From Gammaproteobacteria bacterium (GTDB taxonomy: Bacteria; Pseudomonadota; Gammaproteobacteria; Eutrophobiales; Eutrophobiaceae): DNA of 64,000 nt. A program made the position numbers and the translations under genes. The notes under the pieces were generated by a model that was not told the DNA's origin, did no database searches, and saw nothing but the letters and a program-made list of their open reading frames with translations. The stretch lies in the NCBI GenBank assembly GCA_965116585.1, contig OZ220714.1:2309247-2373246 (forward strand). Reading direction: 5' to 3'. Positions 3,171-28,670 of this stretch are shown here, one piece after another (the first letter of the stretch is position 1; every line of letters begins with the position of its first letter).

Positions 3171-3259
3171 AAAAAACACCCCGAAGGGATACTTTGTAAT
3201 GTGTGGCAACTATCAAAAATAATCTGTGTTAATCTGTGTTTGCGCTGTGGATAATCCTT

Positions 3260-3712
3260 ATGAAAGTTGAAAAAACCTTTACCGTGCAGACCTCCCCGCA
3301 AGTGGTGTGGGATTTTGCCAAAGACCCGGAGAAGATGGCGCCGTGCATTCCCGGTTGCACGGCGATCAGTGTGGTCGATGACACCCGTTACCGGGCGCGG
3401 GTGGCGGTGAAGGTAGGTCCGATCTCGGCGAAGTTCAACCTGGACCTGGAGATCATCGAGGAAACGCCGCCCGTGGAGATCATTTCCAAGACTCGCGGCG
3501 AGGAAGGCACCCGCGCCAGTATGTTGACGGCAGACAACGTCGTGCGTCTCACAGCCAATGACGATGGTTCCACCGAGGTCTATTGCAGTTCGGAATCCTC
3601 CATCACCGGGCGCCTGGGCAAATATGGCGCCGGCATGATGATGAAAAAAGCCGACGCCATCTGGGACAAGCTGGCCGGGAACGTATGCAAGGCAATAGAA
3701 GCAAGCGTCTGA
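3260..3712 (+). CDS. coxG: CoxG-like SRPBCC family protein (carbon monoxide dehydrogenase subunit G family)
   Basis: MKVEKTFTVQTSPQVVWDFAKDPEKMAPCIPGC... matches the CoxG/SRPBCC pattern. It sits immediately upstream of the CoxM/S/L-like genes. Confidence 0.8.
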   Translation: MKVEKTFTVQTSPQVVWDFAKDPEKMAPCIPGCTAISVVDDTRYRARVAVKVGPISAKFNLDLEIIEETPPVEIISKTRGEEGTRASMLTADNVVRLTANDDGSTEVYCSSESSITGRLGKYGAGMMMKKADAIWDKLAGNVCKAIEASV

Positions 3713-7733: not shown

Positions 7734-8108
7734 CTACCATTCGCCCTTCAGAGTTGGTGATTGTCTGGTGTTGTCGTGGTTAACGGCCATTTCCAACTGT
7801 TCGACCAGATCAGGCAGATCGTTCTGTATAGTGTCCCAGAGAATATCGTCGTCGATATTGTGGTAACCATGAACAAGACGATGTCGCATGCCTATGATGT
7901 TATCGAAATCGATATACGCCAGTTCATGTCGTTTTGCTTTTGACACCTGATAGGCCGCTTCACACAGAATTTCTACAAGCCTTACCATTGCCAGCGAATA
8001 CATACGGTCGGAATCCAGATCCTCCCGAGTTTTCCCCTCGCTTAGCTCAATGGCTTCCTGCGCAGCATCCAGCATGTGCAATAGCCGGGTATTATCATCA
8101 ATGAACAT
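7734..8108 (-). CDS. hepT: HepT-like (DUF86) toxin of a HepT/MNT type II toxin-antitoxin pair
   Basis: RX4HXY motif (GMRHRLVHGYHNID), ~124 aa, immediately downstream of an MNT nucleotidyltransferase. Confidence 0.8.
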   Translation of the reverse strand: MFIDDNTRLLHMLDAAQEAIELSEGKTREDLDSDRMYSLAMVRLVEILCEAAYQVSKAKRHELAYIDFDNIIGMRHRLVHGYHNIDDDILWDTIQNDLPDLVEQLEMAVNHDNTRQSPTLKGEW

Positions 8109-8153
8109 AAGTTGTCACGACAGATTCTATCAGGCGGTTAGCAATTCAAGGTT

Positions 8154-8468
8154 TTATGGCGTGGACAAATCGACCAGAATATGTGCATCTTTCACCACCC
8201 TGTCCTGAATATATGGACTCAGATCCCCCATTGTGCGTAAATCAATTTTGCGTTGTCCAAAAAAGAATGACAGGGCTTTTTCCAACCCAACTACTCTGAA
8301 TAGTCCGACTCGAGCGCCAGGTCTGAACTTGACCAACAGATCAATGTCGCTGTCAGGACCGAAATCATTACGCAGCGCTGACCCATACACAGCCAGTTTA
8401 AGGATATCGTTGTTCCGGCAGAACGTTGTAATTTGTTTACTGTCTGGAAGAATCACTTGCGGGTTCAT
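8154..8468 (-). CDS. mnt: MNT nucleotidyltransferase antitoxin (cognate of HepT)
   Basis: GSX10DXD nucleotidyltransferase motif (YGSALRNDFGPDSDIDLLV), 104 aa, upstream of hepT in the same operon. Confidence 0.8.
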   Translation of the reverse strand: MNPQVILPDSKQITTFCRNNDILKLAVYGSALRNDFGPDSDIDLLVKFRPGARVGLFRVVGLEKALSFFFGQRKIDLRTMGDLSPYIQDRVVKDAHILVDLSTP

Positions 8469-8794: not shown

Positions 8795-9472
8795 ATGGTA
8801 GGCGCCATGGGGCATGCGTATCTCGGTTCGAAAGCGACGACGGGGCTGTGCCAACCGTTGATTGCCATGATGCCGCCGCACAGTGTGTACATTGAGACAC
8901 ACTTGGGCGGCGGGGCGATTATGCGGCGCAAGCCGGCGGCGCTGCGCAACATTGGCATTGACATGGATGGGCGGGCGCTGTCGGCGTTCGAGTGTGCGTA
9001 TCCGGTGGAGCTGGTGCAGGGGTGTTGCCACCGGTTTTTAGCGGACTTTCCGTTCGACGGCACGGAGCTGGTGTACAGCGACCCGCCGTATTTGCAGCGT
9101 GCCCGCAAGTCGGGGCGGGGTTATCGGCACGACTACGAGGAGGGCGACCACGAGGCCTTGCTGGCGCTGCTCACGGGGTTGCCGTGTGCGGTGATGCTAT
9201 CGGGGTATCCCTCGGCGTTGTATGACGAGCGGTTGTGTGGCTGGCGCTGCGTGTCGCTGCAGGTGATGAATCAGGCCGGGGTGGTCACGGAGAAGGTATG
9301 GTTCAACTTTGCCCCGGACCGGGTGCACTGGGTGCGTTATGCGGGGCGCAACTTCACGCACCGCCAGCAGGTCAAGCGCAAGGCGGCGAGCTGGGGCCGG
9401 CGGTATCGGGAGTTGCCGCCGGCGGAGCGCCTGGCGGTGCTGGCGGCGATGATGGCGGTGGAGGCGGAGTGA
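8795..9472 (+). CDS. Dam-family N6-adenine DNA methyltransferase (cargo of the IS66-like element)
   Basis: HLGGGAIM (AdoMet-binding FxGxG) followed by the YSDPPY catalytic motif, the D12-class order. The stop lies 4 bp before the transposase start. Confidence 0.75.
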   Translation: MVGAMGHAYLGSKATTGLCQPLIAMMPPHSVYIETHLGGGAIMRRKPAALRNIGIDMDGRALSAFECAYPVELVQGCCHRFLADFPFDGTELVYSDPPYLQRARKSGRGYRHDYEEGDHEALLALLTGLPCAVMLSGYPSALYDERLCGWRCVSLQVMNQAGVVTEKVWFNFAPDRVHWVRYAGRNFTHRQQVKRKAASWGRRYRELPPAERLAVLAAMMAVEAE

Positions 9473-9476
9473 GGGC

Positions 9477-10976
9477 ATGGCGAGCGTGAACAAGACCTCG
9501 CTGCGCACGGAGTTCGAGGCCATCAAGACGCGCTTTGCGGCGCTGTGTGCGGAGGGCAAGCTGAGTCCCGAGGGCCGCGCCCTGTTCGAGGCGATGCTGC
9601 TGCTGTTCGAGTTGCTGCTGGCGGTGTTGATGGAGAAGGCCACGCCGAAGGGAACGCATAACTCGGGCCTGCCGAGTTCCCAAACCGGGCCGGACGAGAC
9701 CGCACGCCGGCAGACCGGCGCCAAGGGCAAGGGGCCGGACCACCGTGCCGCACGGGGCGAGTCAACCCGCGTGGTGGTCGAGACCCGCACCGCCGCGGTC
9801 ACCGAGTGCCGGGCCTGCGGGCGCGACCTCAAGGACCTCCACCCCAGCGGCCACGAGCGGCGCGTGAAGGTCGATATCGTCTTCGAGACAACCGAACTGA
9901 CCGTGAAGGCCGACATCAAGACCTGCCCGCGCTGCCGTACCGAGACCCGCGGGCCGTTTCCGGACACGATGCCGGGCCCCTTGCAGTACGGCCACGGCAT
10001 CGTGGCCTTCGCCACGCACCTGCTCACCGCACAGATGCTCTCACTGCGGCGCGCCGCTCAGACCCTCAAGGCGCTGACCGGGCGCACCATCGCCGAGGCG
10101 ACCTTGCTGGCTTGGCTCTCACGCCTGCACGAGGCCCTGGCCGAGTGGGAGGGGGCCGCCATTGAGCGCCTGCTCGCCGAGCCGGTGCTGCACGCCGATG
10201 AAACCGGCCTGCGCATCGACCGTAAGACCCACTGGCTGCACAGCGTCAGCGCCGGGAACCTGACCGTAAAGCGCGGCCACCGCAAACGGGGCCGCGAGGC
10301 CCTCAAGGACATCGGCATCGTCCCCCGCTATGGCGGTATCCTCGTCCACGACCGCTGGGCCAGCTACTTCGCCTGGGAGAACTGTGAACACGCCCTGTGC
10401 GGCAGCCACCTGCTGCGCGACCTGGCCTTCATCGAAGAGGCCCACGGCCATACCTGGGCAACACGTCTGGGCAACCTCCTGCTCACTACCTGCCGCACCG
10501 TGCGTGACCACCCGAACAAAGCGCTCAGCGACCCCGACTACAAAGCCCTGCGCACACGCTACCGCACCCTCCTCACACAGGCCAGACGGGAACTCCCCAC
10601 ACCCCCTCAGCGTCTCACCGGACAACGCGGACGTATCGCCAAATCCGATGCGCAAAACCTGCATGAAGCCCTCGTCAAGTATGAAACCGACGTGCTGCGC
10701 TTCGCCCGCAACCCCCAGGTCCCGTTCACCAATAACCGCGCCGAGCGCGACCTCCGCATGGCCAAGGTCAAGCAGAAAGTCGCCGGGTGCTTCCGTACCC
10801 CCCACTACGCCGCCGCCTACTGCCGCATCTCCAGCTACTTGCAGTCCATGGCGCTGCAGGGCTACAATCCCCTCACCGCCATCGAGATAGCGCTCAACGG
10901 CAATGCCGCCTCCATGGTAGAGAAACCACCCCAGAATAACCCGGACGACCAGGACCAGGATAAGGGGGGCGAGTAG
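9477..10976 (+). CDS. IS66 family transposase (TnpC-like: zinc ribbon plus DDE domain)
   Basis: CRACGRDL...CPRCRT zinc-finger; ...HADETGLRI...WLHSV... and ...FTNNRAERDLRMAKVKQKVAGCFRT... are IS66 TnpC signature blocks. Confidence 0.9.
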   Translation: MASVNKTSLRTEFEAIKTRFAALCAEGKLSPEGRALFEAMLLLFELLLAVLMEKATPKGTHNSGLPSSQTGPDETARRQTGAKGKGPDHRAARGESTRVVVETRTAAVTECRACGRDLKDLHPSGHERRVKVDIVFETTELTVKADIKTCPRCRTETRGPFPDTMPGPLQYGHGIVAFATHLLTAQMLSLRRAAQTLKALTGRTIAEATLLAWLSRLHEALAEWEGAAIERLLAEPVLHADETGLRIDRKTHWLHSVSAGNLTVKRGHRKRGREALKDIGIVPRYGGILVHDRWASYFAWENCEHALCGSHLLRDLAFIEEAHGHTWATRLGNLLLTTCRTVRDHPNKALSDPDYKALRTRYRTLLTQARRELPTPPQRLTGQRGRIAKSDAQNLHEALVKYETDVLRFARNPQVPFTNNRAERDLRMAKVKQKVAGCFRTPHYAAAYCRISSYLQSMALQGYNPLTAIEIALNGNAASMVEKPPQNNPDDQDQDKGGE

Positions 10977-11352: not shown

Positions 11353-12447
11353 TTATTTGTTGGATTTCCTGCGATTGCAACCCTTGCATAGCATCTGACA
11401 GTTATCCTCGTTTGTCTTGCCACCCTCCGACCAAGGGGTGATGTGGTCAGCCTCCATGTCCACGATCTCAAACACCTTTGCGCATACCTTGCATATCCCC
11501 TTTTGAATCTCGAACGTCCTCTGCTTCATGGCATCGGAGAAGGCTCGGATGTTGAGATGTTTTTCCTCGCCAGTGAGGAGATACGGGTAGATACCCGCCT
11601 TCTTCGTCACATCGTCGTCGATCATCAGGCGGCCAACCTCGACTTCCAGTCTTTCGGGATCCAGTTTCTCGTTCTTGAGTTGCTTGTAAAGCCCACCCCA
11701 ATCCACTCCCTTCATTTGTGTGCGGTAGTTCGGAAAAACCGCCTCCACCCGGTTGATCACCGCCTGGAAGTGACTCCACAAAGCAGTTGCGGTCTTGTCG
11801 TGCTGATGCACGGCCATATACTGCTCGACCGCCTGGTCCTCGTCCTTGATCCATTGGATTGCGGTTTCGAGGTACTCCTGGCGGTCCGCCCTCCCATTCA
11901 CATAACGGCTGCCGATTGCATAAGCCGGGCAGGTGGCCCCCTTCCTGCTGAAATGCCGCTTTGCATCGGATACCCACGGGCCAGCATAAACCGCGTTCCG
12001 CAACTCCTGGTCGGTCAGCCGCTCGCCTGCAATATTGATGATCCTGAACCAAGCCAGCTTTTCGCTGGCGCTTCCCTCGCAGACATAAACCTGCAACGTG
12101 TAGTTAAGAATCCGATCCTGCTCGTCATCTTGCAGGTTATGGAAATACCGCCCGTCAAGGGAGTAGTCGCCTTCCACATACTGTGCGACTGAGATCGTGC
12201 GCTGCTGGCCGTCGATGACCTCATATGTTCCGTCTTCGCGTAGTGCCCAATACATCACATTGAGCGGAAAGCCCTTGTTGATCGTCTCGATCACAGCATC
12301 GCGTTGCTTGTCCTTATAGACGAACTCGCGCTGAAACGGCGGGCGGATGTCGAGTTTACCGCCATAGCCGCGCACCCCGCCTTCGCCGTCGTCGATGTAG
12401 CCCTTCACAAGGTCGCGGACAGTGACTTTCGTCAGAGCAATTTTCAT
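11353..12447 (-). CDS. DUF262 (ParB-like, DGQQR) N-terminal domain fused to a C-terminal HNH endonuclease
   Basis: EVIDGQQRT is the DUF262 motif. The C-terminus HITPWSEGGKTNEDNCQMLCKGCNRRKSN is an HNH motif. A 4-bp overlap with the upstream MTase gene indicates co-transcription. Confidence 0.75.
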   Translation of the reverse strand: MKIALTKVTVRDLVKGYIDDGEGGVRGYGGKLDIRPPFQREFVYKDKQRDAVIETINKGFPLNVMYWALREDGTYEVIDGQQRTISVAQYVEGDYSLDGRYFHNLQDDEQDRILNYTLQVYVCEGSASEKLAWFRIINIAGERLTDQELRNAVYAGPWVSDAKRHFSRKGATCPAYAIGSRYVNGRADRQEYLETAIQWIKDEDQAVEQYMAVHQHDKTATALWSHFQAVINRVEAVFPNYRTQMKGVDWGGLYKQLKNEKLDPERLEVEVGRLMIDDDVTKKAGIYPYLLTGEEKHLNIRAFSDAMKQRTFEIQKGICKVCAKVFEIVDMEADHITPWSEGGKTNEDNCQMLCKGCNRRKSNK

Positions 12448-13505
12448 CGCGACGGCATTCTCTTAATCAGAATGCGTCTATAGGTGCGTTTGTATTGGCC
12501 TCCCACCTTGATAACCCCTCCTTCCCCGTTCAGGTCGTTATAGTTAGTCGCATCTGCGGACGTGTATTTTTTCGTTTTCAGGCCGTAGCGGTCGTCCCTG
12601 TCTGTTATCCCCATGACTTCAAACTGCCCCGGGTTGTGCTTATCCAGAAACGTAATCGGCACCCCCATCGCCCCGTCCCAATCTATCGGGATTTCGGCGG
12701 TCTTGTCCACGTTGATCGCGTCGTAGTTGTCGTAGGCCGGGTATTCCTCCGGCGAGTAGAGCTTGTAGAGGATCAACTCCTCGTGGCGCTTGGCATGGTC
12801 GAGATTGGTGAACCAGGCCGCGTTGCCCAATCGTCCTTTGATAACTCCCTCGACAACTCTGTAGGCGCTCCCCTCCTTTGCGGTCGCCTCCAATTCCCGC
12901 GCGTATCCCTCCGGCACATCGAACAGCATGTCTTGGCCCTTCGGGGTGACGCCAAGCCACATCGTGCCGTCCTTGATTAGGGGGAAAATCTCCTTGTAGG
13001 TGACGGCGTTCTGACTCCCGACGATCAGGAACTTCTTGCCGTACTGCACCAGTTGGGCGACGTATTCGCGGAACAGCGAAAACGGCGGATTGGTCACCAC
13101 GATGTCCGCCTGCTTCAGAAGCTCAATGCACTCCGCGCTGCGGAAATCGCCGTCCCCCTCAAACTCCCGAATTCCGATATCCCCGACTTCTGGCACCCTG
13201 CCGCCCTTCGCGTTCCCCTTGTATTCGAGCCATATCGCCCGCTCCGAATCGTGACGGCTGAACAAGTCACGTTCCTGGTTCCTGTAGCACGCGGTGATGA
13301 GCGTCTTCAGACCCAGGCGCTCAAAGTTGTATGAGAAATAATGAAAGAAGTTGGAGACGCGGGGGTCGTCGCAGTTACAGTACACAACCTTGTCCCGGAA
13401 ATGTCCAGTGTAGTGGCGCAGCTCGTTTTCGATATCGGAAAGCTGCGTGTAGAACTCGTCGTTCTTTTGCCGTTTGGCGTTGCGTAAGTTTTCATTCAGA
13501 GACAT
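12444..13505 (-). CDS. Adenine-specific DNA methyltransferase, EcoRI-methylase-like family
   Basis: N-terminal ...NDEFYTQLSDIENEL...VVYCNCDDPRVSNFFHYF... block and NPPF catalytic motif (VVTNPPFSL). The family assignment is from memory of M.EcoRI-like sequences. Confidence 0.65.
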   Translation of the reverse strand: MSLNENLRNAKRQKNDEFYTQLSDIENELRHYTGHFRDKVVYCNCDDPRVSNFFHYFSYNFERLGLKTLITACYRNQERDLFSRHDSERAIWLEYKGNAKGGRVPEVGDIGIREFEGDGDFRSAECIELLKQADIVVTNPPFSLFREYVAQLVQYGKKFLIVGSQNAVTYKEIFPLIKDGTMWLGVTPKGQDMLFDVPEGYARELEATAKEGSAYRVVEGVIKGRLGNAAWFTNLDHAKRHEELILYKLYSPEEYPAYDNYDAINVDKTAEIPIDWDGAMGVPITFLDKHNPGQFEVMGITDRDDRYGLKTKKYTSADATNYNDLNGEGGVIKVGGQYKRTYRRILIKRMPSR

Positions 13506-13599: not shown

Positions 13600-13729
13600 A
13601 AAGAACAGCCGCGTTAGCGGCGGCTGTCGGGCCGTGGCTCCCTCCTGTCATGACAAGGCATGGGCACACCAACGGTGAGGTTGAGCAAAGTCTATTATAA
13701 CACCCGACACTGTGTCAATGATTTGAATC
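13600..13729. repeat. Copy 2 of the intergenic repeat family
   Basis: ...CCCCAAAAAAAGAACAGCCGCGTTAGCGGCGGCTGTCGGGCCGTGGCTCCC...GTCAATGATTTGAATC is almost identical to 27020..27157. Confidence 0.7.
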
Positions 13730-13832: not shown

Positions 13833-14837
13833 ATGTACTCAAATCGAATTTCATTCTACAAACAACTGGAGGATGCCAGACAGTCTAAGGTGCTGGCGTA
13901 TATCACAGGTGACCGGCGCCAATTAGAGACAAAAATGGCTGCGGAGGTTCTAGACTTCTTTGTCCATCATCTTGACAAGATTGGTGTTGTTGGAAAGCTT
14001 TCTCTATTTCTTTATACCCGTGGTGGGGATACTTTATCAGCTTGGAGCCTCGTTAATTTGTTACGTGCTTTTTGCGATAAGCTAGAGATTATCATTCCTT
14101 CAAAAAGCCATAGTGCCGGAACGTTAGTTTGTCTGGGAGCGGATATATTAGTTATGACTAAACAAGCCACTTTGGGTCCTATTGATCCAAGTGTAAATAC
14201 ACCTCTGAATCCTCAAGTTCCGGGTGGACAACCTATGGCAAATGTACCAGTGAGTGTTGAAGATATTAACGCTTTCCTTGAGCATGCCCGAGAAACAGTT
14301 GGTGTGGGCACTCAACCAAACATCGGTACTGTCTTTGATAGACTTGCGCAAAATGTTCATCCTCTCGTTCTTGGAAGCGCCTTTCGAGCGCGCTCACAGA
14401 TTCGCATGTTGGGAAGCAGGCTCCTTGCTAACCACATGGATAATGAAGATGGTATGAATAAAATCCTGGATTTTTTGTGCAGCGAATCTGGCAGCCATGA
14501 CTACACAATAAACAGAAGAGAAGCTCGAGATGATCTATCCTTACCTATTGAGAAACCAAGCTGGGAACTTTACGAAATAATCAAAACTCTGTATGACGAT
14601 ATTGCCTCAGAATTAGAACTGACTACCGCCTATGATCCAAACTTGGTCTTGGGAGGTTCACAAACTAAGAATTATTCATTTACGCGAGCACTGATTGAGA
14701 GCGCGGGGGGTGGTTCAGATGCTTTCTTAAGTGAGGGGGTTCTCAGTCGCCAACAGATTCAAATTCAGCCAGGTGTTGTAGGAGATGCTATCAACGACCA
14801 ACGTCAGTTTGAAGGATGGAGACATCGTGATGCCTAA
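13833..14837 (+). CDS. SDH-family / ClpP-fold (S49-like) serine protease homolog
   Basis: ...LSLFLYTRGGDTLSAWSLVNLLRAF...PSKSHSAGTLVCLGADILVMTKQATLGPIDP... is a ClpP/crotonase-fold protease core with a Ser nucleophile context. Confidence 0.55.
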   Translation: MYSNRISFYKQLEDARQSKVLAYITGDRRQLETKMAAEVLDFFVHHLDKIGVVGKLSLFLYTRGGDTLSAWSLVNLLRAFCDKLEIIIPSKSHSAGTLVCLGADILVMTKQATLGPIDPSVNTPLNPQVPGGQPMANVPVSVEDINAFLEHARETVGVGTQPNIGTVFDRLAQNVHPLVLGSAFRARSQIRMLGSRLLANHMDNEDGMNKILDFLCSESGSHDYTINRREARDDLSLPIEKPSWELYEIIKTLYDDIASELELTTAYDPNLVLGGSQTKNYSFTRALIESAGGGSDAFLSEGVLSRQQIQIQPGVVGDAINDQRQFEGWRHRDA

Positions 14838-15075
14838 CATCGATAATCCACATCTATCTGTCAAATTAACCCAAGCTAGCGGTATGACCCCGAGCATAGC
14901 AGAAGACACAATCGCGACCGATAACCTTTCTGCTATGATGAAAAATGCTATTGTCATTTTTCAGTCAACACTTACTTTAATTGACTCTCCTTCCCAATAT
15001 CAGAGTGAAGATGGGACTGCTGAAAGGGCTAAAGATTTCGATACAAGTACAAAGCCTCAGATATCAGAGGGGTAG
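14830..15075 (+). CDS. Small hypothetical protein (81 aa), start overlapping the protease stop
   Basis: ORF only; ATG at 14830 overlaps 14837. No known domain; it may be spurious. Confidence 0.25.
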   Translation: MPNIDNPHLSVKLTQASGMTPSIAEDTIATDNLSAMMKNAIVIFQSTLTLIDSPSQYQSEDGTAERAKDFDTSTKPQISEG

Positions 15076-15085
15076 GTATCTCTGA

Positions 15086-15299
15086 CTAGTACTCTTTCAA
15101 TTTAATTCTGACCGGTTAGCTTGTCATAAGCGGTTCACTCCAACGATACTGACCAGCCCAAAGAAACGGTACCAGATGTAAAGTGAGGGATCAGCATTAT
15201 GCCGCCTTTTTTCTTTCTTTTCGATATCTGTCAGCAAACGCCACCACTCGATTAATCTTGACCCGTCGATCAATCAGAATTAAATTGAAAGAGTACTAG
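15086..15299. mobile_element. MITE-like element: 25-bp perfect terminal inverted repeats flanking ~164 bp
   Basis: CTAGTACTCTTTCAATTTAATTCTG (15086..15110) is the exact reverse complement of 15275..15299. It sits between two convergent gene ends; the right inverted repeat overlaps the stop codon of the NACHT gene. Confidence 0.5.
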
Positions 15300-18200
15300 T
15301 GTGGCAAACGAATCTCGCGGAATGCCTCACCGAGCTGAAGTGCCACACTTCGCCGGTCACCCATGTCGACAAGTATGTCGAGGATATGTAAGAACTTCTG
15401 AGCCAAAGCCAGCGCCATTGGCGCGTCACGATGTACAAAGTGTTGTATCATCTCCGCTATGCGCTCCGGGATGAACGTTCCATACCAACCCTTTAGGTTG
15501 TCGGGTCCATCGCCGATAATTGCGAGCACCTGATCCGCGAAGGCTTCGGCTGGGTAGTCGGCCCTGGCTCGCTCACAGAGCGTCAAGAACGGGTCCATAA
15601 CGGAAGCTGCCCATCCGCCAGCGCGAACGAAACGATCAATCAGCGGCAGGATGCGGCTGATTTCGGACCAGTCGCCGTTGACGTAGCGAGTGGCCAGGTC
15701 CGCGCGTTCGACTGAGACAAACATTAACGTGCGAACAAGTTTGGGCAGATCGAAGCCATAGAGATTTCCTCTCCGGTAGCCGTTTTTCTGTAAGGCTGGG
15801 GCTTGCAGAAGCCGGTCAAGACAAAGGTCCAGCGTCGCGACTGCATCCTCTGGGACTACCGGCGCATCGTACACGTAGGAGCAGATGTAAGTATCTACGA
15901 ATGGAGAGAGAAGATCCCAGCAATTGTCACCCTCGATCCCCAATATTGGGTCGAGGAAACGGGCCTGAAAATCACTAAGAGGTAGAAGGCCGACCACCTG
16001 GCCGAGTGCCGACCCGAGGGCGTGGGTCCATTCAAAGCTCTCGGTTGCCGAACGATCTCGACGTCCGGGCTTCATCCAAGGCGGCACATTCTTCTGATTG
16101 GTCCAGTCGAGAACCCCTGTCAGAAAGTTGAGGAGTGCGCTTTTTGCGCTACTGCTTAGGGCCCCGTCGAAGGGGATGCGCTCCAAAATTTCCGCCGCCC
16201 GCTTTGAGTACCAATAGACATCCGGTTCACCCCATACTTCATCTGCGTCGACCGTATCATCTGCATCGTACTCTACAAATCTTTGACACCCACTTCGACC
16301 CTTCCCGGGTTTGACCTTCATCCAGGCCGGAGGCGGTAGCGGAAGGGGCACCCATCCGCTACCGTTTTGATAGAACGCAACCGCCACATCGACCGCCGCT
16401 TGCGCTTCACTTGACGAGTGGAGCGCTTCATTGTGTTGCCTAAGTTGGCCACGCGGCCGCGGAGGAATATGACAGAGCGAAAATGCCAAGATCAGCGCGG
16501 CCCAAGTGAGCTTGGGGTCCTTAGACCAAAGCCTGCACGCTTCTTCGAGCGCAGCTAACGAAACGGCTTCGAGTGGATGCGCAATCAGCCCAAGGAGGTC
16601 GTGAGCTGTGCCCTGTTCGGCTGTGCCTTCGTGGAGGTCCGCTGCGAAGCCTCGCGCTACGTAGATCGCGTGGTGCCATGGGATGACGGAACCAGGCGGC
16701 CACGTCTGACCAGGCTTTTCTGGTAAACGGATAGCGCGTGCCAGGACATCTCGAGACCACTCAAGGTTTTCTTGTGTGCATCGCTCGCGAAAGTTAAGCG
16801 TGATTGCCGCGGTAGCGGCGACTGCGCCACGACGCATACCCGATAGTTCTTCTTCGTCCTCGTCGTCCAGGTGCCTGAACAAGTCGCGGGAGTCCGCTTC
16901 CTTGGCCAATGCTATGGCCCCTTCGACCGTGTAGGTATCGCTCAGTGTCTTCTTCTCGAATGACTTGGAGGCCCAAGTCCAAAGGTTTGTCTGGGCAAGA
17001 CGCTTAGACGCCCCTTCGGCTCTGGTAACGTTTTCAGGCTTAGCAGCAGAAGGACTAACATGGACAACCGCAACCTGGTCCGAATCCTCTTTGGTGCGGT
17101 AAACCTGATAGTTTTCCGGGTCAACTAACTCTGCATATTCCAAGGCCTGAGATGTAAGGTCCTCGCGTGCCTCCAGAATGTCGCGGTGCTCTTCGTACTG
17201 GTAGGGCAAATCGTTCTTAAAATTGAGGACCGCTTCGCGGACCCGGTGGCGGAGCGGTGCCGTCCCAAAGAAAAACATAGGTACCATCCAGCTAAGCTGT
17301 TTGTTACGGACTGGTCTGGCATTTGCTGCTTGGATCGCCTCAATGTGGTGATTATCGTTGCTATTCGTAAAACCGATCAGGTTATTCGTTGACGAAAAGT
17401 CTTGTACCATTCGGTTACGGTCTGCAGTCAACAGTCGTTGTGAGGTAACGAGGGGAAAAGTCGCTTCGCACACCGTCTCGGTATCGAGCGCAAGCATCGA
17501 CGCGATGCCCAGGATGGCGATGCATTCATTCCCTTCTACGATTTGCTGGATCAGTTCATCTACGGCGCGGTTACGCTCAAGCTCGGTGAAGCACCACTCT
17601 TCAAGCGCCATAAACCCGCAACCGATGGCTGCCGGCGCCCACGTTGAACGAAACCAAAGATATTCCCGATCAGTGCCCCAGAACTTTTGGGTGTCCCAGG
17701 GAAACGTCAGTTCGAGTGGTACGGGGGTGCCGCGACGGTCGGGTGAGTGACGATGCAGTTGTCGCCACGCAATCATCGCGTGATTGCAGAGCTCTCGAAG
17801 AAGCCGCAGTGCGTCGTTGGGCGATGATTGGAAAAGCGAGTGAAAGGGCTCTCGAAGCGGTGAAGCATTCGGGAAGCATCGGTGGTCGTCGTGGACCGAC
17901 AGCCTGTTCCAGTCGTGGTGGCTGAAATTGCCGACGGTTCGTAGGGAAAGCGCCCCCGAAAGCGCGATTTCATCTTGACGCGAGCGCTCGGCGTCCGGCT
18001 TGGCAAGAGCTGCTTTGCGCCAGTCAGCCGCATCATGTTGTTCCTGCTTCTCGCGGGCAACTCGCTCGTCCGGAAGCTCCCTTCGCAGGAACGCCAGTGA
18101 AAGCTTAACCACCGGCTGGGGTAATGACTGGGCGAGGACGGGTGAGAAGGTGATGATGTCATGAAATACCTCGTCGCGGATTTGCTTTGAGCTGATTGCT

Positions 18201-21196: not shown

Positions 21197-22276
21197 ATGT
21201 TTGGACAAAGACTCAGATTAGCGCGAAAGAAGGCTGGGTTATCAATGCAGGCCCTTGCAAACAGCGTTATACCCAAAGTTAGCGCACAAGCAATCAGCAA
21301 ATATGAGGCGGAAAAGATGATGCCTTCTTCAGCGGTGCTGGTCGGACTAAGCAAAACGCTTGGCGTGTCCATTGACTTCCTCATGGGAGGGCAAGTCGAA
21401 ACCCTGAAAGGTGTCGAGTTCCGCAAACATTCCGGCACCTCGGCACGAGATCGCGCCCGCGTCGAAGCAATTGTGACTGAAAAGGTCGAAGACTATCTGG
21501 CAATTGAAGACATTCTGGAACTGGTTCCGCTTGCCAATCCCTTTGGCGATCTGGTGACCGATGAGATTGAGAGTATCGAGTACGTTGATGACATGGCCCG
21601 GGCTTTGCGGGAGAAATGGCTGCTGGGACTGGATCCAATTCCCAGCATGTCTGCGCTGCTGGAAGATAAGGGGATTAAAGTTATCGAAGCGGATCTACCG
21701 GATCGTTTCGACGGAATGGCTTGTGATGTAAAGCGTAGTGAGGGCAGACCTGACACGGCAGTCGTCGTTGTGTCCAATCGTACTAATATTGAACGCAAAC
21801 GATTTACTCTCGCCCATGAACTCGCACACAGAGTCATTCGCTCGACTGGTAATCCAGGTATCAATCTTGAAAAAGCCATGAACCGCTTCGCAGGTGCATT
21901 TCTTGTACCAAGCGAACATTTAGTCAAGGAAGCCGGGGCACATCGGCACGGCATGACTTATCACGAGTTGGTTCGGCTAAAACATCTTTATGGCGTTTCG
22001 GCGGTGGCACTGTTGATGCGGCTTATGCAGGTAGATATTTTGTCAAAAGCGGCGACCGAATATGCCTTCCGCAGCTATGCACGCACTTGGCGAGTTGAAG
22101 AACCTGAGCCGATCCGTAATGATGAGGGCTTTGGCACCTTTGAACGGCCACAGCGTTTCGAGCGACTGGTTTGGTGGGCCTTGGGAGAACACCTGATTTC
22201 GTCTGTACGCGCAGCGCAGTTCTTACGTTTGCCGGTTTCGACTATCGAACAGGAAATTCGAGGGCCACAAGACTGA
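21197..22276 (+). CDS. XRE-family HTH domain fused to an ImmA/IrrE-family (COG2856) zinc metallopeptidase
   Basis: N-terminal HTH (FGQRLRLARKKAGLSMQALANSV...SKYE) and a HEXXH motif (LAHELAHRV). Confidence 0.8.
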   Translation: MFGQRLRLARKKAGLSMQALANSVIPKVSAQAISKYEAEKMMPSSAVLVGLSKTLGVSIDFLMGGQVETLKGVEFRKHSGTSARDRARVEAIVTEKVEDYLAIEDILELVPLANPFGDLVTDEIESIEYVDDMARALREKWLLGLDPIPSMSALLEDKGIKVIEADLPDRFDGMACDVKRSEGRPDTAVVVVSNRTNIERKRFTLAHELAHRVIRSTGNPGINLEKAMNRFAGAFLVPSEHLVKEAGAHRHGMTYHELVRLKHLYGVSAVALLMRLMQVDILSKAATEYAFRSYARTWRVEEPEPIRNDEGFGTFERPQRFERLVWWALGEHLISSVRAAQFLRLPVSTIEQEIRGPQD

Positions 22277-23360: not shown

Positions 23361-25322
23361 GTGCAAATTTCAACAATTCTTGATTATATCGATTATGGTC
23401 ACATAGCTCTTCCAGAGTTTCAGCGAGGGTATGTTTGGAATCGGGACCAAGTACGGAGGCTGTTTGATTCTCTTTATTACCGGCATCCGATAGGTGGGCT
23501 TCTAGTCTGGGCAACTGACGCACGCACCGCAGCATTTCGGGGAGATGGGCCAATAGCCCCAGGAGTTGTCAAACTCCTACTAGATGGCCAGCAACGAATG
23601 ACCTCTCTTTACGGCGTCATTCGTGGCCATGCCCCAAAATTCTTCGATGGGAACGATTACACTTTTACAGGTCTTAGCTTTCACTTAGATACTCAAACTT
23701 TTGCCTTTTATCAGCCGATAAAGATGAAAGATGATCCCCTATGGATTGATGTCTCTCAACTCATGAAGGCTGGTACAGATGGTATTGACGGATTTACCTC
23801 CAAGCTCAGTGAGAATCTGGAATTGTCCCAGAAAGGAGTTGGAATGTATGCAGGGCGATTGATTCGTTTACTTGGTATAAGAGATATTGATCTTCATATT
23901 GAGGAGTTAACAGGTGCAGATAAAACCATTGATGTCGTAGTCGATATTTTCAACCGGGTTAACAGCGGCGGCACAAAGCTTTCCAAGGGTGACCTCGCCC
24001 TTGCCAAGATATGTGCTGATTGGCCCGAAGCGAGAGATGCGATGAAAACGACACTCAAGGGGTGGTCTGACGCAGGATATGGCTTCAATATAGACTGGTT
24101 GTTGCGTTCGGTAAACACTGTGCTCACCGGCGAAGCCAAATTTCAGTATTTGCATGATAAAGATGCTATTGAAATACAAGATGGTTTAAACCGCGCTGTT
24201 AAACATATTAATAATTGTCTCAATATGATTGCCGGACGACTGGGGCTTGACCATGATCGAGTTTTCTTTGGTCGGTTTGCAGTACCAGTGATTGTGAGAT
24301 ATCTGGATCGAAGAGGTGGAATGCTCAATGAACAAGAGAGGGATAAGCTTCTATTCTGGTTTGCGCAGGCAGGGATGTGGGGCCGTTTCTCAGGCTCAAC
24401 TGAATCCTACATTGATCAAGACCTTGAAGCTCTCGAAGGCGAGCATGGTGGGCTTAATCAGCTTATAGAACAGCTTCGTCTTTGGCACGGGGGACTGCGT
24501 GTCGAACCGGGACATTTCACAGGCTGGAGTATGGGAGCCCGGTTTTATCCGGTGCTCTACATGCTAACAAGGATGGGGGAAGCCCTCGACTGGGGAACCG
24601 GTTTGCCTCTTAAAGCAAGCCTTTTAGGAAAAATGAACAGTCTTGAAGTCCATCATATCTTCCCAAAATCACAACTATATGATCGAGACTTTTCCAGACA
24701 AGATGTGAATGCGCTCGCAAATTTCTGTTTTTTGACCAAGGATACAAATCTGGTTATAGGTAACAAATTACCGGAAATTTACTTCCCAAAAATTGAGGAG
24801 GCCCATCCGGGCGCACTGAAATCACAATGGATACCCGATGATCCTGTCCTCTGGAATGTAAGTAATTTCCTTGAATTCCTTGAGGCCAGAAAAGCTCTTC
24901 TTGCAGATGAGGTAAATCACCGCATGGAAGAGTTGCTTCATGGTGATAAAAGTTGGCTCACTGGACCGTCTACACCAATGCCAGTGCTTGAACCAATATC
25001 TGTTCCTGGCAGTATAGAAAGTGAGGATGAGGAAAAAGAACTTGAAGATGTCAATAGCTGGATTTCTAAAAATGGACTCCCTCGCGGTACCTTGTCCTAT
25101 GATTTTTCCGACCCTGTAACTGGACAGCAAAAGGCTTTGTTTGATTTGGCTTGGCCGAATGGCATCCAGGAGGAATTAAGCCAGCCGGTTGCCCTGCTGT
25201 TGAATGAAAGTAGTGAGGTTTTAGCCATCGCAAGTCAGGCAGGGTATCGGTGTTTTCTGAGCACTGCTGACCTGCGACGATATATTCAATCAGAGGTGTT
25301 GATTGAAGAAGTCGTTTCTTGA
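23361..25322 (+). CDS. GmrSD-family (DUF262 + DUF1524/His-Me) type IV restriction-like endonuclease
   Basis: GTG start. N-terminal ...LLDGQQRMTSL is the DUF262 motif. ...LEVHHIFPKSQL...NALANFCFLTKDTN is the DUF1524 HNH-like motif. There is a ~150-aa C-terminal extension. Confidence 0.75.
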   Translation: MQISTILDYIDYGHIALPEFQRGYVWNRDQVRRLFDSLYYRHPIGGLLVWATDARTAAFRGDGPIAPGVVKLLLDGQQRMTSLYGVIRGHAPKFFDGNDYTFTGLSFHLDTQTFAFYQPIKMKDDPLWIDVSQLMKAGTDGIDGFTSKLSENLELSQKGVGMYAGRLIRLLGIRDIDLHIEELTGADKTIDVVVDIFNRVNSGGTKLSKGDLALAKICADWPEARDAMKTTLKGWSDAGYGFNIDWLLRSVNTVLTGEAKFQYLHDKDAIEIQDGLNRAVKHINNCLNMIAGRLGLDHDRVFFGRFAVPVIVRYLDRRGGMLNEQERDKLLFWFAQAGMWGRFSGSTESYIDQDLEALEGEHGGLNQLIEQLRLWHGGLRVEPGHFTGWSMGARFYPVLYMLTRMGEALDWGTGLPLKASLLGKMNSLEVHHIFPKSQLYDRDFSRQDVNALANFCFLTKDTNLVIGNKLPEIYFPKIEEAHPGALKSQWIPDDPVLWNVSNFLEFLEARKALLADEVNHRMEELLHGDKSWLTGPSTPMPVLEPISVPGSIESEDEEKELEDVNSWISKNGLPRGTLSYDFSDPVTGQQKALFDLAWPNGIQEELSQPVALLLNESSEVLAIASQAGYRCFLSTADLRRYIQSEVLIEEVVS

Positions 25323-27157: not shown

Positions 27158-27341
27158 ACAAGCCAGGTACCCTCATCCGGCATCGAAAGCGTTACATCAA
27201 GATAAATCCACTTTATGGTGGTATTTCAGACAGAATATGTTGTTTATTACCTTGTATTTTTGACAATTACTGTTAATAATAACCTTGTATTTTTGACATT
27301 TCTGTATTATAGTGCCTTCTTATTTGCCGGAGGTACCAACC

Positions 27342-28670
27342 ATGAAGCGTTCTATTGATGCCGTGCTGCGAGCCTGGAAGGATTCTTCCGGGCGCAAGCC
27401 GTTATTGATCCGGGGGGCGCGTCAGGTAGGCAAATCCTGGTCCGTGCAGCGCTTTGGCAAGCAGGAATTCGCTGATATGGCAGTCATCAATCTTGAATCG
27501 GAGCCGCATGTTGCGGAGTTGTTCCGGAGCATGAACCCCAGGGAGATACTGAACAAGATCGAAATACTGACCGGGCAAAAGGTGGTTCCCGGCAGAACAC
27601 TGTTGTTTATCGACGAGATTCAGGCGTTTCCCAAGGCTGTTTCGGCGTTGCGTTACTTCTATGAGGAAGCCCCGGAACTGCACGTGATCGCGGCAGGTTC
27701 GTTGCTGGAATTAACCCTGCATGCAAGCGGTATTTCCATGCCGGTGGGGCGTGTTCAATACCTGTATATGAAGCCCATGAGTTTTGAAGAATTTCTCATT
27801 GCGCAGGGGCAGGAAACGGTAGTTGAAGCGCTCAGACACAATCGGAGTTTGTTCGAAGAACCGGTGGTTCACGACACCCTGCTTGACCGGGTAAGACAAT
27901 ACCTGCTCATCGGCGGCATGCCCGAAGTGGTGGCAGAATACCGGGAATCCGGGAACTACGAACATTGCCGCCAGATCCAGACCTCCCTGCTACAGACCTA
28001 CCGGGACGATTTCAACAAATATGTAAAATCCGGACGACATGAAAACGTCGGCAAGGTATTCCAGTCCGCCGTGCAACAGGTGGGAAACAAGTTCAAATAT
28101 GCCAGGGTTGACCCTGACGAACTCTCCAGAAATATAAAAACTGCCCTGGAATTACTAACGCTGGCCGGTGTGTATCACAAAGTCGTCAAGTCATCTGCTG
28201 AGGGTTTGCCCCTGGGAGCAAATATCAATGAGCATTTTTTCAAGGTGCTGTTTCTTGACGTCGGCCTGATGCAAAATCTCTGTGGTCTGGCGACGGATAT
28301 TATCCGGGAAAAGGACTTGATGGCGATCTACCACGGCGCGTTAATGGAACAATTTGTCGGGCAGGAACTGATTGCCTGTCAGGACTGTTTCACCAGGCCG
28401 GCGCTGTATTACTGGGCCAGGGAAGCCAGAAACAGCAGTGCGGAGATTGATTTTGTCTGCCAGTCCGGTACCAACCTGGTCCCGATAGAGGTAAAAGCCG
28501 GGAAAACCGGGCGGCTCAGAAGCCTGCACCAGTATCTCGCAGAAAAACAACAAGGATGGGGAGTTAAAATATCGACCGCGCCGCTGCAATATGAAAAGCC
28601 GGTGTTATCCATTCCCTTTTATATGGTCAACCATTGGCAGGCATTGTGGGAGGTCCGGGAGAGGGATTAA
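27342..28670 (+). CDS. ATPase with AAA (PF13173-like) and DUF4143 domains
   Basis: Walker A RGARQVGKS and Walker B LLFIDEIQ; a GGAGG ribosome-binding site before the ATG at 27342. Confidence 0.75.
   Translation: MKRSIDAVLRAWKDSSGRKPLLIRGARQVGKSWSVQRFGKQEFADMAVINLESEPHVAELFRSMNPREILNKIEILTGQKVVPGRTLLFIDEIQAFPKAVSALRYFYEEAPELHVIAAGSLLELTLHASGISMPVGRVQYLYMKPMSFEEFLIAQGQETVVEALRHNRSLFEEPVVHDTLLDRVRQYLLIGGMPEVVAEYRESGNYEHCRQIQTSLLQTYRDDFNKYVKSGRHENVGKVFQSAVQQVGNKFKYARVDPDELSRNIKTALELLTLAGVYHKVVKSSAEGLPLGANINEHFFKVLFLDVGLMQNLCGLATDIIREKDLMAIYHGALMEQFVGQELIACQDCFTRPALYYWAREARNSSAEIDFVCQSGTNLVPIEVKAGKTGRLRSLHQYLAEKQQGWGVKISTAPLQYEKPVLSIPFYMVNHWQALWEVRERD

Follow-up and report, generated by a model that had tools for sequence, protein, structure and literature searches.

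Does a stand-alone ClpP-like protease gene in a bacterial defence island serve the large NACHT-type gene on which it converges, or does it form a system of its own with the small open reading frame (ORF) that overlaps its stop codon? The question is raised by positions 13,833 to 15,075 of a 64,000-nucleotide stretch of a gammaproteobacterial (Eutrophobiaceae) genome, hereafter the window, in which a first-pass annotation had recorded a ClpP-like protease ORF and a possible 81-residue ORF whose start overlaps the protease stop. Both ORFs are present as recorded. Across other genomes, the small ORF proves to be a conserved gene that accompanies the protease, and its product carries a ~40-residue N-terminal segment, the tag, that elsewhere precedes antitoxin-like tails. 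We therefore put forward, at roughly even chances, that the pair may be a toxin-antitoxin-like module under the control of its protease, with the small protein as the cognate substrate or inhibitor of that enzyme.

A protease subfamily and its overlapping partner gene

The product of the upstream gene (Table 1) matches Pfam PF01972 (SDH_protease) above its cut-off (46.9 versus 31.3 bits; E 2.4e-12), with the match confined to residues 57-122. At 59.8 bits against a cut-off of 250, it does not reach the equivalog level of NCBIfam NF047768 (Clp_like_SDH), and on this score it is a distant relative, not an equivalog. A full-length relative is found in PHROGs (phrog_11747, function unassigned; E 4.6e-53). 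Because only 66 of the 286 Pfam positions are covered and the NCBIfam score is so far below its cut-off, the protein belongs to a separate subfamily of ~332 residues, represented by phrog_11747 and distinguished by a C-terminal domain and a small partner of its own. Homologues number 4213, the best 120 of which are 59-77% identical over the full ~332 residues. Those at E<=1e-30 fall into 355 clusters (50% clustering), and among the 150 best-scoring clusters nearly all proteins are 320-370 residues long, with a maximum of 501; large fusions, for example to a STAND NTPase, are absent from these 150.

The AlphaFold2 model of the protease is confident (predicted local distance difference test score, pLDDT, 86.7; predicted template modelling score, pTM, 0.83) and adopts the ClpP/crotonase fold. 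The closest solved structures are NfeD (1510-N, with stomatin as operon partner) and SppA; superposition covers ~160-180 residues, and the rest of the model consists of a family-specific helical region and a long three-stranded sheet (residues 278-332). By sequence, the 1510-N chains are the sole solved relatives (E 0.004), with Ser94 of the window protease aligned to Ser97, the 1510-N nucleophile. Both NfeD and SppA are membrane-anchored enzymes with a Ser-Lys dyad, and the partner of NfeD is an SPFH-domain protein, whereas the window protease is soluble, carries ~150 extra C-terminal residues (the helices and the sheet) and conserves Ser, Asp and His. The protease reads as cytoplasmic, since inspection by eye revealed neither a signal peptide nor a hydrophobic span, and scores 12.5 bits against a cut-off of 40 with the NfeD1b_N profile; no SPFH genes were found among 74 downstream and 68 upstream immediate neighbours of protease homologues.

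The first-pass annotation had looked to an intact catalytic Ser/Lys dyad, which turns out to be the wrong yardstick for this family. Ser94, Lys110, Asp118 and His222 are all invariant in a 97-sequence alignment, but Lys110 is replaced by Asn in viral members of 42-44% identity, whereas Ser94, Asp118 and His222 are retained in viral members of 33-44% identity. The predicted triad, recognised by sequence order only, runs Ser, Asp, His, which fits the order from which the SDH family takes its name. The window protease is probably active, because it combines the ClpP fold with invariant Ser94, Asp118 and His222 and an alignment of Ser94 with the 1510-N nucleophile. The sole segment of the model with pLDDT below 50 is the SGS loop just before His222 (residues 219-221; 14487-14495), which may be a mobile catalytic loop.

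The start of the small ORF overlaps the protease stop as ATGCCTAA, the protease TAA occupying 14835-14837. A GGAG at 14818-14821 lies 8 nt 5' of the ATG, a junction suggestive of translational coupling; the longest open form of the ORF spans 14785..15075, and the 81-residue form begins at ATG 14830. The first four contigs with close protease homologues carry an ORF of 62-73 residues that overlaps or abuts the protease stop and has a GTAATDNLSAMMKN-VV motif in common with the window. At nearly every one of the loci collected (80 from species genomes, 79 from viral contigs and 80 from metagenomes), an ORF of 55-130 residues starts between -40 and +70 of the protease stop. A profile trained on 40 such downstream ORFs (match threshold E<0.01) finds its match directly 3' of the protease at 139 of 233 loci, or at 100 of 194 when the 39 training loci are set aside, with no match elsewhere in a 2.17 Mb six-frame translation. 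The match rate follows protease identity (25/26 loci at >=60%, 79/111 at 54-60%, 34/76 at 48-54% and 1/20 at <48%), and the copies missed by the profile, including divergent prophage copies, keep an overlapping ORF of 55-75 residues with the motif Y..N/D...[ST][ST]SAP. The first ATG of the small ORF precedes or coincides with the protease stop in 65 of 85 tag-positive loci, and follows it within 45 nt in 19 more.

Ratios of nonsynonymous to synonymous polymorphism (pN/pS) of 0.30-0.59 in the non-overlapping part of the Caldilineaceae copies point to purifying selection on the small ORF, and an 81-residue protein 99% identical to that of the window (P0121) has been called in an NCBI assembly. 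The small ORF is thus a real conserved gene, beyond a chance open frame, in support of the first-pass annotation, which had listed it as possible. Searched against 5.8 billion proteins, its profile returns 19 matches, all unnamed; the number is low because such ORFs are rarely called and because the word index limits short queries. The small protein has no family match in Pfam, NCBIfam or PADLOC, and a marginal one in PHROGs (E 0.098). Homology to the protease N-terminus, hinted at by a MAFFT placement that suggested mimicry of the GG-helix region, was ruled out by a profile-profile probability of 0.2%.

Beyond its conserved N-terminal tag, the small protein varies between copies and is mostly hydrophilic. 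Column frequencies from 83 distinct sequences give a tag consensus whose first half reads hydrophobic-N-Y-x-D, then [ST][ST]-S(0.63)/T(0.27)-[AGS], then ~20 residues, and whose second half reads [TS](0.98)-A(0.59)-x-x-D(0.55)-[NS](0.80)-L(0.81)-x-x-[IML]-[MIL]-[KR](0.89)-N(0.87)-x followed by three hydrophobic positions.

When all ORFs within 6 kb were clustered against each other at 87 loci, the small ORF formed the sole cluster crossing distant taxa, the remaining clusters representing synteny within Caldilineaceae. Pfam places the 74 downstream and 68 upstream immediate neighbours in a scatter of housekeeping, mobile-element and defence families, with at most 3 loci per family, and PADLOC finds among them scattered type I restriction-modification, GajA, HmaC, HKD+Snf2, mad5, DUF499 and AbiEi, none recurrent; a recurrent NTPase was found among these 142 neighbours by neither search. 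With no other recurrent neighbour, the option of an independent two-gene system, one of two offered by the first-pass annotation, is the one that the comparison bears out. Conserved adjacency across genomes, a check named in that annotation, holds for protease and small ORF; some homologues adjoin defence genes in scattered fashion, none of them recurrent.

A portable tag in front of antitoxin-like tails

Some loci carry a longer small ORF (86-144 residues versus a median of 70), with a co-oriented third gene that overlaps or abuts its stop. These third genes (48 dereplicated, from 229 usable loci) include PemK/MazF (10), PIN (6), Fic/Doc (3), YafQ (1) and HEPN_RiboL-PSP (1), and a canonical type II toxin follows an extended small ORF at no fewer than 20 loci (~9%). 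Individual verification by Pfam was obtained for PemK/MazF at L022, L061 and L077, PIN at L023, L036 and L068, Fic/Doc at L031 and L049, and YafQ at L071. The tail extensions resemble the toxin-binding ends of antitoxins, as in ...EDFDDALPDEFW and ...GLHPGAIWTSEDFDDALPDEFW before PIN and the helical ...ELIALYAEAVEEDLELVDLGLAHYAEILKQE before MazF; Pfam has no match for these antitoxin-like tails, and in ten longer variants likewise none of Pfam, NCBIfam and PHROG recognised a domain. The same architectures recur in database proteins P0122 and P0126-P0138. Recurrent third genes of other kinds also follow extended small ORFs at L018, L019, L177 and L178 (183-186 residues), L027 and L186 (~215 residues), and L021 and L181 (99 residues). 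Pfam has no family for these genes, nor for the third gene of L063; the recurrent ones are candidates for new toxins, each with a tagged antitoxin-like protein as its counterpart.

The tag also occurs fused to a SocA/Panacea antitoxin domain, in the same sequence from two independent assemblies (L005, 634-2334, and L006, 31-1731; P0096, 566 residues). The protease is the only co-oriented neighbour of the tag-Panacea gene within ~230 bp, and a 62-residue ORF lies ~235 bp upstream. An additional fusion of protease to tag in P0096 was rejected, as the protease C-terminus ...DERKFEGWRHRND, with its stop, is intact in another frame and a 1-nt frame change had merged the ORFs; the tag-Panacea fusion alone appears to be real. 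Overall, the tag is a portable module that forms the N-terminal part of proteins with at least five unrelated neutralising moieties. It holds the place usual for the DNA-binding domain of an antitoxin, always directly behind the protease gene.

This anatomy recalls the toxin-antitoxin-chaperone (TAC) systems of phage defence, in which antitoxins of several unrelated families carry a common extension (ChAD) tied to a dedicated chaperone (PMC5105189, PMC6377645). As in TAC, one short extension is shared by several antitoxin families, here on tails followed by PemK (10), PIN (6), Fic/Doc (3) and YafQ (1) genes and before Panacea, and a dedicated proteostasis protein is co-encoded, with tripartite forms on a two-gene theme. 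The differences are that this protein is a ClpP-fold protease here and a SecB-like chaperone recognising ChAD in TAC, that the tag is N-terminal, in place of the DNA-binding half, whereas ChAD is C-terminal, and that the commonest form here has no separate toxin.

A likeness to type II toxin-antitoxin systems is also apparent in small, overlapping, co-transcribed genes, a sporadic horizontal distribution, a presumed labile partner, and the MazF, VapC, Doc and YafQ toxins attached at some tag loci; the pair itself is co-oriented, overlapping or abutting, inherited together, patchy and often on mobile elements. Classical type II antitoxins are degraded by Lon or ClpXP. In the present module, by contrast, the protease is itself encoded, the partner has no recognised DNA-binding domain, and the order is protease then partner.

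Proposed mechanism and competing explanations

In the mechanism that we propose, the ~40-residue tag would be the element recognised by the protease, bound and probably cleaved, such that the protease would govern the fate of the tagged protein while the tail would be exchangeable. Coupled, continuous synthesis of the partner would keep the module silent, with the partner occupying or blocking the protease as a pseudo-substrate or inhibitor while being turned over by it. Should expression stop, as when a phage shuts it off or the element is lost, the partner would run out and a harmful activity would be freed, in the service of defence or addiction. In the two-gene form found in the window, this activity would be the protease itself, the likely candidate because that form has no other effector; where a third gene is present, the part would fall to its MazF, VapC, Doc or YafQ product, the toxin neutralised by the partner tail. 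With a protease of its own, the module would be independent of host Lon or ClpXP, which fits its spread over bacterial phyla, archaea and prophages. A broader claim, which we advance tentatively and hold to be doubtful, is that such loci make up an undescribed class of conflict modules ('toxin-antitoxin-protease'), in which a dedicated, ATP-independent ClpP-fold protease and a portable tag on antitoxin moieties and Panacea would form toxin-antitoxin or abortive-infection switches independent of host Lon and ClpXP, and for that reason able to operate in bacteria, archaea and phages. The protease would be the effector in the minimal two-gene form of this class.

A precedent for a serine protease as the toxic half of a two-gene stability and defence module is IetAS, a serine-protease toxin with an AAA ATPase antitoxin (cited in PMC13069673). 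The partner there is a large ATPase, and neither sequence nor fold relates that system to the window pair. IetS is a subtilisin-like protease, of another fold than the window protease. A full-text literature search from the angles of protease family, antitoxins and anti-phage systems found no description of the pair, which appears undescribed and built on a known protease family with toxin-antitoxin-like anatomy.

Several observations count against a protease-controlled toxin-antitoxin-like module. That a ClpP-fold protease without an unfoldase is generally toxic is an assumption, and the conservation of the protease (50-77% identity across phyla) is unusually high for a conflict gene. Many protease loci lie amid housekeeping genes, and PADLOC has no model matching either the protease or the small protein. 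The tails of the two-gene form are of low complexity and bear no functional marks, and no DNA-binding domain is recognised in the 81-residue protein by Pfam, NCBIfam or PHROG, unlike in classical type II antitoxins. The AlphaFold2 model of P0096 (with 97 protease homologues) gave no structural support for docking of the tag on the protease; its protease is well modelled, and residues 330-399 and most of Panacea have pLDDT <50. At one locus (L052, 1943-2908), the only clear case with a different partner in place of the small ORF, the protease is intact and keeps every catalytic residue, and the next gene, with overlapping start and stop, encodes a 419-residue SbcD/Mre11-like protein. Lastly, in two viral contigs (L153 and L156), where the protease is 42% identical and Lys110 is replaced by Asn, protease and small ORF lie directly 5' of a portal gene, and a function in morphogenesis is conceivable for distant branches of the family.

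The strongest rival, which computation could not separate from the proposed module, is an adaptor model of the type VI toxin-antitoxin kind. Here the small protein would not be consumed, and would tether targets via the tag, its tail or fused domain capturing a toxin, phage or host protein for degradation; the protease would be part of the neutralising arm and not a toxin. The fusion of the tag to Panacea favours such an adaptor, as SocA, the founding member of that domain, delivers SocB to ClpXP (PMC8832971) and so links an antitoxin-like protein to a Clp protease. The model also accounts for the tag standing in place of the antitoxin N-terminal half with toxin-binding tails left, and a housekeeping-like enzymatic role is in line with how strongly the protease is conserved. 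SocA, however, uses the ATP-dependent ClpXP of the host, whereas the module here encodes its own, ATP-independent protease; PanA antitoxins generally bind directly and not via proteases (PMC8832971), and ClpP-like or SDH proteases are named as partners in neither the Panacea paper (PMC8832971) nor the NetFlax paper. Moreover, most loci have the two-gene form, whose short, variable tail of low complexity shows no recognisable binding domain and leaves nothing obvious to deliver. The P0096 model points neither way. We consider the adaptor model unlikely. Taken with the comparisons above, the pair lacks the defining features of the TAC, IetAS and SocA/ClpXP systems.

Somewhat less probable again is a direct anti-phage or regulatory protease that cleaves a phage or cellular target, with the small protein as an activating, assembly or sensing subunit and no self-toxicity. 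The occurrence of the module in defence islands and at prophage moron positions is in keeping with this idea, as are the type I restriction-modification, GajA, HmaC, AbiEi and mad5 genes adjoining other loci. Translational coupling suggests a stoichiometric complex, and the loop at His222 is modelled at low confidence, as if ordered by the partner alone. What such a protease leaves unexplained is the tag on antitoxin tails before MazF, PIN, Doc and YafQ, and no PADLOC family matches it.

The layout of the small protein, a conserved N-terminal 'leader' and a hypervariable C-terminal part beside a dedicated protease gene, is that of a precursor, from which the protease might release a variable C-terminal peptide (signal, bacteriocin-like or regulatory). 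We judge such a peptide-maturation pair improbable: no export signal, transporter, modification enzyme or immunity gene is among the recurrent neighbours, and the tails are hydrophilic, of low complexity and, in ~9% of loci, antitoxin-like.

A role of the pair as accessory or effector of the neighbouring NACHT gene, the other option of the first-pass annotation, is close to refuted. PADLOC assigns the 1794-residue protein to Avs4 (E 5e-21, residues 291-587), with DUF626_VIII at the N-terminus, and Pfam has no match at E 1e-3; the 'NACHT' label is better read as an Avs4-like STAND NTPase. Both genes lie in one defence island, and their ends converge across the MITE-like element (miniature inverted-repeat transposable element) that the first-pass annotation had noted. 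The element is confirmed by 27-nt perfect inverted repeats bounding a 210-bp insertion and by an empty site in one other locus, L087; from this empty site and the duplicated ACTAGT, it is a recent MITE insertion, and no second copy of its inverted repeat was found within the window. Before the MITE inserted, only 10 nt separated the two stop codons. The ACTAGT target includes the stop codon of the NACHT gene, and the protein was therefore unchanged by the insertion.

Against this proximity, tblastn of the 1794-residue protein at 166 other protease-homologue loci found a sole match, in L087, and none at the remaining 165. L087 is a 1.9-kb contig of an NCBI assembly and belongs to the same lineage as the window; it is not independent evidence, because its small ORF is 99% and its NACHT C-terminus 95.5% identical to those of the window. 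No NTPase recurs among the neighbours, no fusion occurs among the 150 best-scoring of the 355 clusters, and the convergent orientation excludes a shared operon. The G+C content (GC) of the protease and small ORF (0.41-0.45, ~43%) is ~12 points apart from that of the NACHT gene (~56%), which shares a range of 0.52-0.59 with the flanking restriction-modification genes. The adjacency reflects co-location in a defence island without functional coupling, and it is with much better than even confidence that we regard the pair as autonomous and not a partner of the NACHT gene; the Avs4-like gene is best analysed on its own.

Finally, a prophage remnant in which the protease would mature phage heads with a scaffold-like small partner is very improbable: S49/ClpP-like proteases are the usual prohead proteases, NCBIfam Clp_rel_HeadMat (NF045542) is weakly matched, the family occurs on 79 viral contigs and two divergent viral homologues lie directly 5' of a portal gene, but the NF045542 score of 25.1 bits falls far short of the cut-off (120), capsid, portal and terminase genes are absent from the vicinity of the pair in the window, most loci are non-viral, including archaeal and housekeeping contexts, and the copy in the inspected Escherichia coli prophage, flanked by Q and the lysis genes and encoded on the other strand, is away from the head genes.

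Distribution, mobility and genomic setting

The protease family has at least 340 matches in 185,579 species-representative genomes, a lower bound that depends on the two peptide patterns used in the scan. The best 80 of these 340, at 50-69% identity, cover more than 15 bacterial phyla (Chloroflexota, Bacteroidota, Pseudomonadota, Desulfobacterota, Bdellovibrionota, Spirochaetota, Bacillota, Synergistota, Verrucomicrobiota, Planctomycetota, Gemmatimonadota, Nitrospirota, Ignavibacteriota, Fibrobacterota, Myxococcota and others) and the archaea Methanothrix and Methanofastidiosum. The family is also present on 79 viral or prophage contigs; in one of the loci (L004), the protease lies amid phage replication and packaging genes. 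Because its distribution is sporadic, the pair appears to be a mobile accessory cassette that is horizontally transferred. At L001 (4618-8116), the cassette, with an 87-residue ORF, lies between thiamine pyrophosphate (TPP)-enzyme ORFs, with TPP_enzyme_N and TPP_enzyme_C upstream and TPP_enzyme_C downstream, and looks as if it had been inserted into or between TPP-enzyme gene copies.

A 53%-identical homologue (WP_044064371.1) is carried by 47 of 5426 complete E. coli genomes, beside antiterminator Q in 12 of the 12 genomes listed; near-identical DNA of the window pair was not found in E. coli genomes or plasmids. In the one record inspected (L167, NZ_CP081704.1, 2229-3396), a 43.7-kb circular lambdoid element, the protease gene, encoded on the opposite strand, has antiterminator Q on one side and the holin-lysis genes on the other, a classic moron site. 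RefSeq names this protease (SDH family Clp fold serine proteinase) and leaves the overlapping 59-residue ORF (3217-3396) unannotated, so that a conserved small gene is systematically missed in RefSeq E. coli prophages. The prophage pair offers a convenient, tractable experimental model.

In the window, the pair sits in a defence island comprising a HEPN/MNT-like pair (by eye), a type II restriction-modification system, the Avs4-like gene, an HTH-ImmA/IrrE (helix-turn-helix, HTH) gene and GmrSD, bordered by housekeeping genes for a TonB-dependent receptor and a molybdopterin oxidoreductase (Table 1). At 7734-8468 on the minus strand, two small neighbouring ORFs show by eye a HEPN motif (RHRLVHGY) and a nucleotidyltransferase motif (GS..R.......SD.D), and are probably a HEPN/MNT toxin-antitoxin pair. 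Between these and the restriction-modification genes, a block of 0.64-0.70 GC (8795-10976) appears to be a foreign insertion in the island; it holds a 225-residue ORF with an SDPPY methyltransferase-like motif (no Pfam match) and a 499-residue ORF that by eye resembles an IS66-family transposase. A strong terminator-like hairpin of 9 pairs followed by a T-run lies on the minus strand at 13604-13628, in the interval separating the methyltransferase start from the protease, where none of the minus-strand genes ends.

Table 1. Features of the window, in window coordinates; the last four belong to the surrounding defence island.
Feature	Position	Strand	Basis or remark
SDH-type ClpP-fold serine protease, 334 aa, ATG start	13833..14837	+	ORF listing, Pfam
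Ser94 codon, predicted nucleophile, motif HSAGT	14112..14114	+	invariant in 97 sequences; aligns with Ser97 of 1510-N
Asp118 codon, predicted triad Asp, motif GPIDP	14184..14186	+	invariant in 97 sequences; retained in divergent viral members
His222 codon, predicted triad His, motif SGSHDYTI	14496..14498	+	invariant in 97 sequences
Putative translational-coupling junction	14818..14837	+	GGAG within protease Trp-Arg codons, ATG 14830, TAA 14835-14837; read from sequence
Small partner protein, 81 aa, without Pfam, NCBIfam or PADLOC family	14830..15075	+	conserved family, purifying selection
Conserved core (tag) of small protein, residues 9-44: LSVKLTQASGMTPSIAEDTIATDNLSAMMKNAIVIF	14854..14961	+	column frequencies, 83 distinct sequences
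Inverted repeats, perfect over 27 nt including palindromic ACTAGT target duplication	15085-15111 and 15274-15300		sequence
MITE, 210-bp insertion	15091-15300		empty site in L087, duplicated ACTAGT flanks
NACHT/Avs4-like gene, 1794 aa	15296..20680	-	PADLOC
Type II restriction enzyme (DUF262/HNH type) and methyltransferase	11353-13505	-	
HTH and Peptidase_M78 (ImmA/IrrE) protein	21197-22276	+	
GmrSD-type restriction enzyme	23361-25322	+	
AAA_14/DUF4143 ATPase	27312-28670	+	

If the proposed module is real, antitoxin instability, the arming step of toxin-antitoxin and abortive-infection systems, could be encoded within the module itself, by a small self-compartmentalised protease together with a ~40-residue tag. 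This would explain how the module moves between very distant hosts. It would also yield a degradation tag that is natural, portable and matched to its own protease, usable as a tool, and would add a protease-based counterpart to the chaperone-based TAC systems.

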